Below, one piece after another: positions 1-21,245 of a DNA stretch of 64,000 bases; within the stretch, counting starts at the first letter, position 1, and every line of letters starts with the position of its first letter. The translations under genes and the position numbers were made by a program. A model generated the notes under the pieces. That model did no database searches. It was not told the DNA's origin and worked only from the letters and a program-made list of their open reading frames with translations. Origin of the DNA: Escherichia coli (GTDB taxonomy: Bacteria > Pseudomonadota > Gammaproteobacteria > Enterobacterales > Enterobacteriaceae); the NCBI RefSeq assembly GCF_044324785.1, contig NZ_CP172127.1. One strand, written 5' to 3'.

Positions 1-121
1 CCTTGTCCGTCAGCACGACGGGGAAAATACGTTCGCCGATGAATGCGGCATTTTTATAGCCACGGGCGATACTGGTCAGTACCGGATCAACGACACGTTT
101 ACCTTTTAAGTAATCAGACAT
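1..121 (-). CDS. phage major head protein, N-terminal fragment; gene runs off the left window edge
   Basis: ATG at 119-121 (minus) with AAGGAG upstream; translation MSDYLKGKRVVDPVLTSIARGYKN...; lies directly downstream of the protease/scaffold gene (positional inference). Confidence 0.4.
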   Translation of the reverse strand, partial: MSDYLKGKRVVDPVLTSIARGYKNAAFIGERIFPVVLTDK

Positions 122-135
122 GCTCTCTCCTTAAA

Positions 136-1251
136 TTACAGGCAGCGTGCGACAGCAGCCTCATAGCTGATGCCTTCTTTTTTGGACAGGGCCACTGCTT
201 TCTGATGCAGGGCCAGACGCTCAGGATCGGCTTCCGCAAACTCTGCCACATCCACCTTCACCGTGTCGCCGACACGCTCTTTTGTGGCCTGTTCGGCGAA
301 ATTCATCACCGGCTCCCCGTCGGAGAGCAATGAACGAAAGGCGGTGGCCAGCGGTGTGCGGCTTTCCCCCTCAGCAAACTCCACCGGCTTGTCGCCACCG
401 GCGACGGCATCCAGCAGGGCAACCACCACGGAGGAGGCGCGGGGAGCCAGACGGCCCTCTGCGACCAGTTTTTCTGCAAAGGCCACATTGTCCTTATGCA
501 GTTGCTCCTGTCTGACCTGTGCATCACGCGCATCGCGATCAGCAGCCTGCTGCTTCAGGCGGCGGTTCTCCTCCTGAAGGGCTTCAATCTCTTCTTTTGT
601 CATCGATGATTCCTCGTTACTTGCGGAAGACGGCCCCGGGCCTGTCTCACTGAATTGTGCACCTGCTGCATCCTGCGACAGTGTGTCGCGGTACGCCTCT
701 TCGCGCAGACTGTTGAGCTGCCATTCCGGCAGGACTTTTTCTGCCTCGTCCAGACTGAAGCGGGCGATCAGAAAATCGCGCAGCTTTCCCCACAGGGAGG
801 CATTCGTGATGGCCTGCCAGTCGGCGAACTCCACCACACCTTCTTCCTGCTCACTGAAGGACACCTGTTTCAGCCCCTTGACGGAAGGTGGCTGTGCCCC
901 GAGAAAGCCCACATGGCGAAGGTAGAGCACGCCGGGCTTCGGATTGGACGGTGAATCCGGGAGGTAGAAAGAGGCGGACACTTTTTTGAATCGTCCGTCG
1001 GTGACCATCTCAGCAAACTGCGGGTCCAGCTGGGCAGGCTCTGCCATCAGATCGACGCCGCTGAGCGACAGGGCTTTCACCCAGCCCCACGCCGGGTCTT
1101 CCGTTCTGGGATGACCAATCACGAGTGGTGCTTCATGGACGGACGGGTCATAGGCTTTCACGCAGGCGGCAAGATCGTCTGGCGTGAACGGCAGTTTTTT
1201 GCCGTGCATATCGGTATGAGTACCGGCTTTAAAAATGTGAATGGCTGACAT
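136..1251 (-). CDS. Mu I-like head maturation protease / scaffold protein
   Basis: 371 aa ORF; N-terminal MSAIHIFKAGTHTDMHGKK recalls Mu-like prophage protease I; acidic, coiled-coil-rich C-terminal half typical of scaffold; position in head module. Confidence 0.6.
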   Translation of the reverse strand: MSAIHIFKAGTHTDMHGKKLPFTPDDLAACVKAYDPSVHEAPLVIGHPRTEDPAWGWVKALSLSGVDLMAEPAQLDPQFAEMVTDGRFKKVSASFYLPDSPSNPKPGVLYLRHVGFLGAQPPSVKGLKQVSFSEQEEGVVEFADWQAITNASLWGKLRDFLIARFSLDEAEKVLPEWQLNSLREEAYRDTLSQDAAGAQFSETGPGPSSASNEESSMTKEEIEALQEENRRLKQQAADRDARDAQVRQEQLHKDNVAFAEKLVAEGRLAPRASSVVVALLDAVAGGDKPVEFAEGESRTPLATAFRSLLSDGEPVMNFAEQATKERVGDTVKVDVAEFAEADPERLALHQKAVALSKKEGISYEAAVARCL

Positions 1252-1465
1252 TTTGCTGTCCCGCGTTATGTTGTCGGAGACAGTTTGTGAGAAATGCAGG
1301 CCCGGCGATTTTAATCTGCTTTAGAAAACATCAGGGGAGAAGGACAGGGAAAGCAATGCGGTGAACCGGAGGCGGTTATAAAACAGAGGCTGTAAAGCCT
1401 TTATAAAGGTAATACAGCCCCTCATTCGCTGGCAATGATAAATCACCCGCCTGAAGAGAGAAAAC

Positions 1466-1924
1466 TCAGCGACGGGCCGCTGATTCAAGATGGCGGACAA
1501 TGGTATCGAGGATGGGGATTACCACTTCAGGCTGTAGTTCTCCATCCCCCGTCACCGGCAGGAACGGGCGGGCCGGAAGTTCAACAGACTCATTACGCCC
1601 CGTTTTACCCCCGAACTGGTGAATGGCACCGTAAACAACGTTGGTCCCCACAACAGCCTGCCGGTCGTCATGGTCGGTTGATACTGACCCCATCAGACGC
1701 CCGGTATCCTGCAGTGTCTGCCCGTCACGTTCTTCCGCTGCCAGCGAGGGCATCCACCCCGGACGCCCCTCATCAAGAAAGTTAAACTGTGTTTCCGCCA
1801 GCAGGGTTCCGGCGATTTTGCGCATCGCGGGCTCCAGGTCTGTGGCAGCAAGATCCAGCGCACGGAGGCTCCGGCGCAGGGACTTATCGTTAATGGTGAT
1901 ACTGACCAGGTTATCGGAAGCCAT
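1466..1924 (-). CDS. phage virion morphogenesis protein (Mu G-like)
   Basis: 152 aa ORF between head-morphogenesis F-like and protease genes; positional and size inference. Confidence 0.45.
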   Translation of the reverse strand: MASDNLVSITINDKSLRRSLRALDLAATDLEPAMRKIAGTLLAETQFNFLDEGRPGWMPSLAAEERDGQTLQDTGRLMGSVSTDHDDRQAVVGTNVVYGAIHQFGGKTGRNESVELPARPFLPVTGDGELQPEVVIPILDTIVRHLESAARR

Positions 1925-1926
1925 TG

Positions 1927-2775
1927 TTATCCTCTCAGTTCCTGTTGTGCCAGTGGCTGAAGCGTACCCTGATAGCGGGCCAGGTCGGGACGGTATGCTG
2001 CCCCCGGTGCATAAGACCAGCCGACGTCGGTGGTCACCTTCGTGGTGCCGGTATTAAAGGTGGCCACGTTCCGCATTTCGCCGGTTTTCTCTGAGACCAG
2101 TTTCAGTTCCTGGCCCATGGCAGAGCCGGAGCTGATAACCTTCAGGCCACGGGCACGGACATCCGCCGCACTCAGGGCAATCACACTACAGCGGCAGCGC
2201 CAGCCGTTCGGCGGGTAAAATGCCTGCCAGAACGGGTCATCCCAGCGCAGCACCAGACCATGCAGCGCCAGATGGCTCCTGCGGGTATGGCTGTCGTTGA
2301 TGCCGGTATACATCCAGTACGGCCTGTCGTCGACGTTTTCCATCTGCTCCGCCCAACGACCGGCGCTGTAGAGTACGGACATATTGGTGCGAAAGATGGT
2401 GTCGAGCCGCCACGGGCTGCCCTGCTGAATGGTGACCGGCTCACCCGTTACCGGGTCAGTCGTGTCACGTGGTCCCCACCATCCCTTACGCTTCAGCACC
2501 GGCTCCAGCTCCTGCCGGAACCAGCGATCGGTTTTTCCTTCATCGACAGCCTGCTGCAGTGCCCCGCGAATATCTTCCAGAATATCCAGGCGGGTCACTT
2601 TAGCGACGGTAAAGGCGCGGGCATGGGCTTCCTGCCACATTTCTTCCCAGTCCCAGGTAATCTGATACCCTTTGGACTTCAGGTAACTGACTGCCCGCTT
2701 CGGGGGAAGCGTCATGCAGTACGCCAGTTCAGCCGTTGTCACGCTCATGCAGACGCCCCCAGATATTTGCCACAA
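1927..2775 (-). CDS. phage head morphogenesis protein (Mu F / SPP1 gp7 family)
   Basis: 282 aa ORF directly downstream of portal, overlapping its 3-prime end; true start may be the internal Met (MSVTTAEL). Confidence 0.6.
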   Translation of the reverse strand: MWQISGGVCMSVTTAELAYCMTLPPKRAVSYLKSKGYQITWDWEEMWQEAHARAFTVAKVTRLDILEDIRGALQQAVDEGKTDRWFRQELEPVLKRKGWWGPRDTTDPVTGEPVTIQQGSPWRLDTIFRTNMSVLYSAGRWAEQMENVDDRPYWMYTGINDSHTRRSHLALHGLVLRWDDPFWQAFYPPNGWRCRCSVIALSAADVRARGLKVISSGSAMGQELKLVSEKTGEMRNVATFNTGTTKVTTDVGWSYAPGAAYRPDLARYQGTLQPLAQQELRG

Positions 2776-20431: not shown

Positions 20432-20434
20432 TGT

Positions 20435-20596
20435 TTATTTTTTCCCTGGGGCAGGGGCTGCCGGCATAGTGGTTTTATTGGCAGAGGAAGACGATTCTCC
20501 TTTTCTACCGGAATCGCGCTCGAACGTCACGATGTGCTTGCTTTTGGGCTTTTCTGAGTAATCCAGGCTATCATGCTTATTGTTTTGAGTAGTCAT
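20435..20596 (-). CDS. small hydrophilic ORF (53 aa), convergent with moron
   Basis: ATG at 20596 (minus) with AAGGA upstream; low-complexity Ser/Lys-rich; below ORF-track cutoff. Confidence 0.2.
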   Translation of the reverse strand: MTTQNNKHDSLDYSEKPKSKHIVTFERDSGRKGESSSSANKTTMPAAPAPGKK

Positions 20597-20749
20597 TGGA
20601 ATCATCCTTTTTGTTGCGGGTCATGTTTCAGCAAACTCGATTCTAAGTTGCCAGGAAGGATGATTTCAATGCCCGACTTATCTATCGTATAGCGGAAAAG
20701 AATTTCAGTTCTGTTCACCAGAACCCATGTTAACCCACTCCAATTCGTT

Positions 20750-20782
20750 ATTTATCTCACGGATCCCCCTTCATTTATCTCA
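20750..20782. repeat. two direct copies of ATTTATCTCA near putative prophage right end
   Basis: Copies at 20750-20759 and 20773-20782, just inside the point where the phoX-like frame terminates. Confidence 0.4.
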
Positions 20783-20789
20783 TGTCTGA

Positions 20790-21245
20790 TCAGTTCCCGC
20801 CCTGCGGCAGGCTAAACCACGCCATGCCGTCGTGGTGCATCCCGGCCTGCGCCGCCTGTTCTTCCGTGGTGTTGCTACCGTCGGTTTTAAAAACCGGCAG
20901 ATTTCCGGCAATCCCGGTGGCGTCGCCCCATTTGTAGAAGGGCTTCGCGATGTATCCTTCCGGCACGATAACGGTATCTTCCGTGGAAACCGGCAGGCTG
21001 GTGAAACCGAGCGTCGTCGCTTTGCCGAGGTTACCGCTTGCTTTGGAGACCACTTTCGCCAGCGCGTTTTCCTGTTTCAGCAGAAATGGGAACGCTGCCG
21101 CGGCACCGGCGACCGTGCCTGCCTGTAACAGACGGCGGCGTGACAAATAGACTTCCGCCACCTGCGAAAACGCGCGGTTATCGCTCGGGTTACTGATTTC
21201 TTCACTATGCTCACGTTTGAATAAAGTTTTTAACGGTCTGCCCAT
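20790..21245 (-). pseudogene. Tat-signal secreted protein, PhoX/DUF839-like N-terminal fragment (3-prime truncated)
   Basis: SRRRLLQAGTVAGAAAA Tat motif; frame ends abruptly at 20790 after about 150 codons. Confidence 0.4.

Follow-up and report, generated by a model that had tools for sequence, protein, structure and literature searches.

A BcepMu-like transposable prophage with outward-facing early and late gene blocks in Escherichia coli

The 64,000-nucleotide stretch of Escherichia coli DNA analyzed here (contig NZ_CP172127.1 of assembly GCF_044324785.1; hereafter the window) carries at positions 1 to 20792 what can be identified with high confidence as the right part of a single 38-kb transposable myovirus prophage, intact and recently mobile, that is related to phage BcepMu. 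The genes form two blocks that read outward from a central region of immunity and accessory genes, a divergent layout that is normal for the BcepMu-like group. The early operon runs to the right end and comprises the promoter candidate Pe, a Ner-like helix-turn-helix (HTH) gene, further regulators, an rve transposase, an ExeA-like ATPase, Gam, GemA, and Mor. The late genes extend to the left end, where a holin, SLT endolysin, and Rz/Rz1 cassette opens the cluster, followed by Mu-like terminase and portal genes and the head genes and then, outside the window, by P2-like tail, tail-fiber, and invertase genes.

Gene identities and strands were obtained from an open reading frame (ORF) map of window positions 1 to 24000 and from PHROGs scans of 30 ORFs (Table 1). 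They bear out a preliminary description of the stretch in placing the late genes at 1 to 8654 on the minus strand and in having both modules read outward from a central region. The same description put the whole early module on the plus strand, which holds from the Ner-like HTH gene to Mor (11634 to 19684); the repressor gene (11195 to 11653) lies on the minus strand and reads away from the early operon, an arrangement shared with c of Mu. None of the core ORFs is disrupted. Left of the window, the RefSeq annotation of identical copies lists the rest of the head genes, a tail module judged to be P2-like (gpV, W, J, I, D, X, U, sheath, and tube), tail-fiber genes, and a Gin-like invertase.

Comparison of 33 window ORFs with BcepMu (NC_005882) by tblastn gave 21 colinear matches in mirror orientation, with identities of 30 to 68%, including the transposase (68%), the terminase large subunit TerL (62%), the ATPase and the portal (59% each), and Mor (56%). 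The G, F, portal, and TerL genes are colinear with BcepMu gp31 to gp28 at 44 to 62% identity. In BcepMu, Mor, GemA, the ATPase, the transposase, gp10, gp12, and gp16 lie on one strand toward one end, and the repressor, holin, SLT endolysin, Rz/Rz1, terminase, portal, head, and tail genes lie on the other strand, so that the window is its gene-for-gene mirror. This two-cluster organization, a transposase unrelated to Mu A, and CA termini have been described for BcepMu (Lavigne et al. 2009, PMC2771037), and the rve domain, the end repeats, and the TG...CA rule have been described for the BcepMu group (Ronning et al. 2010, Goudie et al. 2008; PMC2920897, PMC2628397). The prophage has these features, namely, divergent clusters, a gp9-type rve transposase followed by an ExeA-like ATPase, TG...CA ends with repeats, a lysis cassette, and a P2-like tail. 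BcepMu and phiE255 (BcepMu-like/Bcepmuvirus) likewise have two outward-facing clusters with the same gene order from Mor to tail, the holin/SLT/Rz/Rz1 cassette, Mu-like terminase, portal, F, G, and I genes, a P2-like tail, TG...CA ends with subterminal repeats about 23 bp apart, and one Mor/C gene at the tip of the early cluster.

The same orientation recurs in a sample of relatives consisting of 80 IMG/VR contigs with encoded transposases that are 66 to 100% identical. TerL lies upstream on the opposite strand in 58 of 58 cases and the holin in 61 of 61, and Mor lies downstream on the same strand in 67 of 67; one contig has a single match to the terminase small subunit (TerS) downstream on the same strand. 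The preliminary description left a choice between a distinct BcepMu-like lineage, which these comparisons uphold, and an inversion product. A canonical Mu-type prophage whose early segment was recently inverted, through a local rearrangement or an assembly artifact, would formally give this layout, which equals Mu with the c-to-mor block flipped in place, and Gam, GemA, and Mor are indeed Mu homologues in Mu operon order. This is nevertheless extremely unlikely, as the orientation is the same in BcepMu, KP12, PhiKM, 523 complete E. coli genomes (in which the match has a colinear coverage of 80% or more), and 58 of 58 IMG/VR relatives, the transposase and ATPase are not Mu A and B, and no inverted-repeat scars or internal ends were found. 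The divergent arrangement is ancestral to the group and is not a local inversion or an artifact.

The transposition proteins clearly set the prophage apart from Mu. Although they had been named transposase A and B, neither has a tblastn match to Mu A or B (NC_000929) at an E value of ≤1e−3, and both are of the BcepMu type. The BcepMu transposase is a distant member of the Tn552/IS1604-type DDE family (PMC2628397, PMC2771037); the kinship of the transposase described here with that family is taken via the BcepMu homologue, and it differs from the Tn552/IS1604 type in being part of a phage replication system and in being paired with an ExeA-like ATPase. Among the window ORFs, only G, F, portal, TerL, Gam, GemA, and Mor match Mu by tblastn. 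Mu thus shares these homologues with the prophage, as well as the transposable myovirus lifestyle, TG...CA ends, the divergent repressor and early operon, and, as judged from annotation, a probably invertible tail-fiber segment. In contrast to Mu, in which everything downstream of c is codirectional, the early block is oriented oppositely relative to the late genes. The prophage furthermore differs from Mu in having an SLT endolysin with a holin and P2-type tail genes, and in lacking com/mom and carrying its own Dam instead. The prophage is not a member of Muvirus, given the differences in transposition proteins, orientation, length of the target duplication, and number of activators.

The ends of the element were located by comparison with copies elsewhere. 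In strain AH21E028, an identical prophage of 38,080 bp splits sfaA, and homology between the window and that copy stops after ...CATGTCTGATCA, which places the right end at window position 20792. Positions 1 to 20792 therefore represent the right 55% of the prophage, which continues for about 17.3 kb past the left window edge, as judged from identical copies. The element, initially given as a Mu-like prophage spanning 1 to 20790, is thus a transposable prophage, although with a right end 2 bp further on and a much larger extent to the left. Junctions extracted from four independent insertions have the same termini, 5'-TGATGCGCC...GTCTGATCA-3', with TG...CA at the tips, GATAAAT motifs at positions 14 and 37 from the tip at both ends, and a 6-bp target duplication in all four cases (sfaA, GGAAGT; malE, GAAGGT; rstB, ATTTGT; nfrB, ACTTTA). 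The terminal repeats that had been anticipated are therefore present, whereas the duplication is of 6 bp rather than the 5 bp anticipated. The target duplication of Mu is 5 bp and that of Tn552 is 6 to 7 bp, which the 6 bp found here would fit.

At the right end of the window copy, host homology begins at position 20793, as seen in genomes without a phage at that place, and belongs to a PhoX-family phosphatase gene (659 codons when intact; minus strand, window 20793 to 21245 onward) that is interrupted after about codon 150. This phage-host junction is absent from 5,426 complete E. coli genomes, and the left junction and target duplication of the window copy are consequently not directly readable. 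As the left copy of the duplication lies outside the window, GTTCCC is predicted from the rule seen in the four other insertions, and the left end would read TGATGCGCCGCGCGATAAATG... with GTTCCC just before it. The right flank, at about 20.8 to 26 kb, is dense in insertion sequence (IS) elements, with fragments of IS5, IS3, and ISL3.

The preliminary description also considered a prophage end between 8654 and 11195, which would divide the region into a late-gene remnant (1 to 8654) and an independent Mu-like early or transposon module (11195 to 20792). The central 2.5 kb (8785 to 11078) is in fact variable among relatives and holds accessory genes, as might be expected at such a boundary. However, the center contains no terminal motif pair and no TG/CA end, no pair of GATAAAT motifs occurs within the 38-kb element away from its ends, and a search of its interior with the terminal 22-mers, allowing up to 6 mismatches, retrieved no copy. 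Moreover, both modules always travel together, and the late module carries neither replication nor integration genes. Since 6-bp duplications bound the whole 38,080-bp unit at four host sites and no terminal-repeat pair exists within 8654 to 11195, both the inversion and the two-element readings are set aside, the probability left to two adjacent elements being negligible.

A single mobile element is also what the distribution of its copies shows. The 20.8-kb query has a match in 770 of the 5,426 complete E. coli genomes, 523 of them with the colinear coverage stated above, and prophages that are 100% identical over the 20.8 kb occur in many of these genomes at varied chromosomal sites and in varied strains. 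At least nine different flanking genes are found among the copies, and insertion is essentially random, with a 6-bp duplication. A defective, immobile relic that merely keeps the BcepMu-like gene order might be supposed from the fact that only part of the element lies in the window and that the prophage is known here from sequence alone. This is very unlikely for a prophage whose copies are identical at many sites and in many strains, each with a fresh 6-bp duplication, and whose core ORFs are all intact. In addition, related sequences have been deposited as phage records, namely, KP12, where the record is a partial clone of a sewage phage project, and PhiKM, where it is a partial genome.

A 145-bp piece of the right end (window 20639 to 20783, ending 9 bp before the tip) is found alone, at about 90% identity and with the rest of the phage absent, on many large E. 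coli plasmids, many of them from poultry isolates, and on some chromosomes. A 600-bp query gave 109 plasmid places among all its matches. On one plasmid the 145-bp piece is unannotated and lies between IS remnants and a LysR gene. The plasmid piece looks like the relic of an old insertion.

The single Mor/C-family gene of the intact prophage bears on how the two blocks are connected. The Mor homologue resembles Mu Mor (31%) and Mu C (35%) to about the same degree, and no second Mor/C homologue was found in the whole 38,080-bp element; with one such gene against two in Mu, no separate middle stage is expected. The preliminary description had seen a puzzle in Mor acting about 10 kb away on the opposite strand. 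The geometry is as described, but the puzzle falls away, because Mor is a diffusible protein that acts in trans and neither distance nor strand is an obstacle to it.

Candidate targets for Mor are present upstream of the late genes. Two 8-mers, TTAAAATC and CTGTCTCC, located 31 nt apart upstream of the holin and I genes, each occur exactly twice in 38 kb, on the late strand. The pattern YTAA-N6-TTAAWATC has four sites in 50 kb and none in shuffled sequence, and each of the four is intergenic and lies on the late strand, upstream of either holin, I, the tail chaperone/tape-measure genes, or baseplate W. When aligned, the four sites display a 16-bp imperfect dyad (nnTAA, six mostly G/C bases, and TTAAw), followed by ATC, 19 nt, a −10-like hexamer (GATGCT, CAAACT, CATACT, and AATACT), and G, with identical spacing. 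Among 49 distinct regions equivalent to the candidate promoter P_lys and 32 equivalent to P_I, most of the closer relatives retain the box and hexamer and differ in the spacer; the P_I box is invariant in relatives with I proteins that are 73 to 100% identical, again with a varying spacer. The box upstream of holin and I is also found in BcepMu, as an exact 15-mer (TAAAGCCGATTAAAA; 19 bases by eye) located 22 nt from CAAGAT and GATGAT, and BcepMu gpW is preceded by a palindromic variant. The annotated ATG of BcepMu gp32 (position 18850 of the BcepMu sequence) falls inside the predicted P_I −10 hexamer GATGAT, and the true start is therefore probably the next ATG downstream.

Mu has the same box and spacing just downstream of mor (AGTAAAGCCGGTTAAT, 22 nt, and TATCCT), and this box is likely the Mor site of Pm. 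At Pm, a Mor dimer binds two 5-bp inverted repeats with a G/C-rich hexanucleotide between them, at −51 to −36 (16 bp), in replacement of a −35 element (PMC4390567), and the C site at the Mu late promoters is also of 16 bp, centered at −43.5, with the same geometry as the Mor site (PMC2582627). The agreement of the box with the published description of Pm points to a two-tier cascade in which a single activator would drive four Pm-like late promoters. Upon loss of the repressor, Pe would drive the early operon, and its last conserved product, the only Mor/C-family activator, would diffuse to the 16-bp dyads (nnTAA-N6-TTAAw) centered near −43. The four Mor-bound promoters, which lack a −35 element and lie upstream of holin, I, tail chaperone/tape-measure, and baseplate W, would then turn on all late genes, and the orientation of these genes relative to mor would be irrelevant to the mechanism. 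Activator-dependent late promoters without −35 and with a 16-bp dyad near −43, four in number and two of them upstream of lys and I, would thus be a further likeness to Mu. An RNA hairpin that would sequester the ribosome-binding site downstream of P_lys and P_I (TGTCTCC...GGAGACA) was considered and rejected, as the predicted transcription start lies inside or after its 5' arm; the TGTCTCC block more plausibly comprises the final bases of the −10 hexamer together with the discriminator.

Several points weigh against the interpretation given above. The completeness of the window copy is deduced from identical copies elsewhere, as its left end and junction lie outside the window. At the nucleotide level, megablast of the 20.8 kb gave no match to BcepMu, and strict membership of Bcepmuvirus by nucleotide identity is accordingly unsupported with megablast; genus thresholds in ICTV practice are roughly 70% nucleotide identity. 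The E. coli phage is a protein-level relative of BcepMu that does not necessarily belong to the same genus by nucleotide criteria, for which reason "BcepMu-like" is the safe label. Promoter function and dependence on Mor are predictions from sequence. The pattern was defined post hoc from sites that it then recovered, and what backs it independently is confined to the constant distance to the −10 hexamer and to its conservation from E. coli to Burkholderia phages. These hexamers resemble TATAAT only weakly, and the start predicted for P_W, the candidate upstream of baseplate W, would make the gpW mRNA almost leaderless, unless the annotated start codon is wrong.

The closest named relatives support the placement in the BcepMu-like lineage. 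PhiKM (PQ738613), which is filed in GenBank as Bcepmuvirus, has 94.6% nucleotide identity to the prophage, and PhiKM, Phi06_2974 B (KM389306), and the KP12 contig (OM835952) are colinear with it over both modules at 85 to 95% nucleotide identity. They differ in their central, end-proximal accessory, and tail-fiber genes, and the records are partial or permuted assemblies. In essence, the three belong with the prophage to a single group of enterobacterial phages. OM835952 ("Klebsiella phage KP12 clone KP12_2") is labeled Vequintavirinae, yet it holds a BcepMu-like genome with 85% identity to the window, and it is probably a cosequenced prophage contig deposited under the wrong taxon.

Relative to BcepMu, which also has the late-promoter box, the center of the prophage holds Dam and three unassigned ORFs in place of gp18 to gp20, and the genes beside Mor are different. 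A Mu-like Gam (62%) has no tblastn match in BcepMu, and the acyltransferase gp53 of BcepMu is absent here. The Gin-like invertase and the invertible tail-fiber segment, known from the annotation of identical copies, are reported to be lacking in BcepMu (PMC2771037). The Gin-like recombinase adjoins oppositely oriented tail-fiber and fiber-assembly genes at the left prophage end (11927 to 14183 and 1018 to 2401 in two left-end stretches outside the window), and the arrangement of these genes varies between strains. By analogy with the G segment of Mu, this suggests an invertible host-range segment at the left end.

The gap between G and I (1252 to 1465), near the genome center, contains a conserved element at 48.7 to 49.2% of the genome length. 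Its 16-mer TTTATAAAGGCTTTAC is identical in BcepMu, where the proteins are only about 50 to 60% identical. The element is kept across relatives as a sequence and not as a stem. An intrinsic terminator stem was considered, but the outer stem is lost in relatives with I proteins that are about 73 to 75% identical while the core sequence is kept, and a purely structural reading is therefore unsupported. In Mu, the strong gyrase site sits in the same gap, and the Mu G-I region has no obvious similarity to the element when compared by eye. The proposal that in BcepMu-like phages a single Mor/C activator directly switches all late operons, and that the 16-mer may serve a function analogous to that of the strong gyrase site of Mu, is regarded as an even call. 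Neither part was found stated in the accessible literature; the original BcepMu description (Summer et al. 2004) may hold either.

In the immunity region, alignment with BcepMu gp17 and the sequence itself indicate that the true start of the repressor is probably the ATG at 11533, giving a protein of 112 amino acids. This start would leave a 100-bp control region that holds the strong σ70 promoter candidate Pe. Between the modules, the ORFs of 247, 134, and 71 amino acids occur in 10 to 18 of the 80 related phages and could form a moron or defense cassette, as far as their sequences and position tell. The ORFs of 210 and 53 amino acids beyond Mor occur in 7 to 10 of the 80 related loci. Searches of these five accessory ORFs against PHROGs, NCBIfam, PADLOC, Pfam, and PDB returned only a faint P-loop signal (247 amino acids) and a faint Nudix/RppH similarity (210 amino acids), the latter with no Pfam match.

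Table 1. Features of the prophage in the window, in order of position
Feature	Position	Strand	Basis or remark
Major head protein gene, 5' end, cut by window edge	1-121	-	RefSeq annotation of identical prophage NZ_CP196262.1; position equals BcepMu gp34
Head maturation protease/scaffold (Mu I-like, BcepMu gp32 homologue)	136-1251	-	phrog_976, E=2e-163; 50% identity to gp32
Candidate late promoter P_I	1282-1325	-	Dyad TCTAAAGCAGATTAAA (1310-1325), 22-nt spacer, hexamer CAAACT (1282-1287)
Conserved intergenic element CCTTTATAAAGGCTTTACAGCC	1388-1409	-	In G-I gap, genome center
Virion morphogenesis G	1466-1924	-	PHROGs; BcepMu colinear match; also matches Mu G
Virion morphogenesis F	1927-2748	-	PHROGs; BcepMu colinear match; also matches Mu F
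Portal, DUF935	2729-4225	-	PHROGs; 59% identity to BcepMu; also matches Mu portal
TerL	4225-5748	-	PHROGs; 62% identity to BcepMu; also matches Mu TerL
TerS	5745-6287	-	PHROGs; BcepMu comparison
Two small conserved proteins (BcepMu gp26, gp25 homologues)	6290-6601, 6601-6927	-	PHROGs; BcepMu comparison
Rz	6924-7535	-	PHROGs; BcepMu gp21-24 synteny
Rz1 lipoprotein, embedded in Rz	6962-7228	-	Lipobox LAVSC in embedded frame
SLT-type endolysin	7564-8301	-	PHROGs; BcepMu gp21-24 synteny
Holin	8304-8654	-	PHROGs; BcepMu gp21-24 synteny
Candidate late promoter P_lys	8680-8723	-	Dyad CTTAACGCGCTTTAAA (8708-8723), 22-nt spacer, hexamer GATGCT (8680-8685)
Variable accessory (moron) region between modules	8785-11078		Present in 10-38 of 80 related loci
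247-aa ORF, P-loop-like	8785-9528	+	Faint N-terminal P-loop signal
134-aa ORF, convergent, overlaps 247-aa ORF	9504-9908	-	Accessory
71-aa ORF	9907-10122	+	Accessory
Dam-type adenine methylase	10314-11078	+	PHROGs; PADLOC MTase_II
Hairpin, 11 base pairs, terminator-like on minus strand	11085-11109		Between methylase and repressor genes
XRE/cI-type repressor (BcepMu gp17 homologue)	11195-11653	-	PHROGs; BcepMu comparison
Early promoter candidate Pe (TTGACT, 17 nt, CATAAT)	11558-11586	+	10/12 consensus matches; in divergent gap between repressor and 62-aa HTH
62-aa small HTH (Ner analogue, BcepMu gp16-like)	11634-11822	+	Ner-family HTH_35 match weak, E=0.005
102-aa HTH regulator (gp12-like)	11875-12183	+	PHROGs; BcepMu comparison
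303-aa gp10-like conserved protein	12194-13105	+	PHROGs; BcepMu comparison
DDE (rve) transposase	13109-14878	+	68% identity to BcepMu gp9; Pfam rve
ExeA-like AAA+ ATPase	14889-16055	+	59% identity to BcepMu gp8
Rest of early operon, including small ORFs	16058-19314	+	PHROGs
Gam	16355-16885	+	PHROGs; 62% identity to Mu Gam
MazG-like	17455-17760	+	PHROGs
DUF2786	17757-18440	+	PHROGs
GemA	18865-19314	+	PHROGs; 36% identity to Mu GemA
Mor/C-family transcription activator	19286-19684	+	phrog_532; 56% to BcepMu gp1; PDB 1rr7 and 9l0x
210-aa ORF, end-proximal accessory, after Mor	19799-20431	+	Faint Nudix/RppH-like similarity (PDB E=0.004)
53-aa ORF, end-proximal accessory	20435-20596	-	Accessory
Right terminus	20750-20792		...TGATCA-3'; two subterminal GAGATAAAT repeats at 14 and 37 from tip, mirror of left end
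Predicted right copy of 6-bp target duplication (GTTCCC)	20793-20798		Inside interrupted PhoX-family gene

The divergent layout is already known, having been in the literature since 2004 to 2009, and the prophage does not challenge the existing picture of Mu-like phages. For annotation, it provides a clean and complete example of a BcepMu-like transposable phage in E. coli, with mobility that can be read from the sequence. Many of the best matches among the 770 genomes are human clinical isolates, including ST131, and the phage disrupts host genes at its landing sites, namely, sfaA, malE, rstB, and nfrB in other strains and, in the window, a PhoX-family gene. What is added are exactly mapped ends, the 6-bp target-duplication rule, and a testable model in which one Mor-type activator would act at four Pm-like late promoters. 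Both the promoter model and the conserved element at the center add modestly to the biology of this phage group and can be tested.

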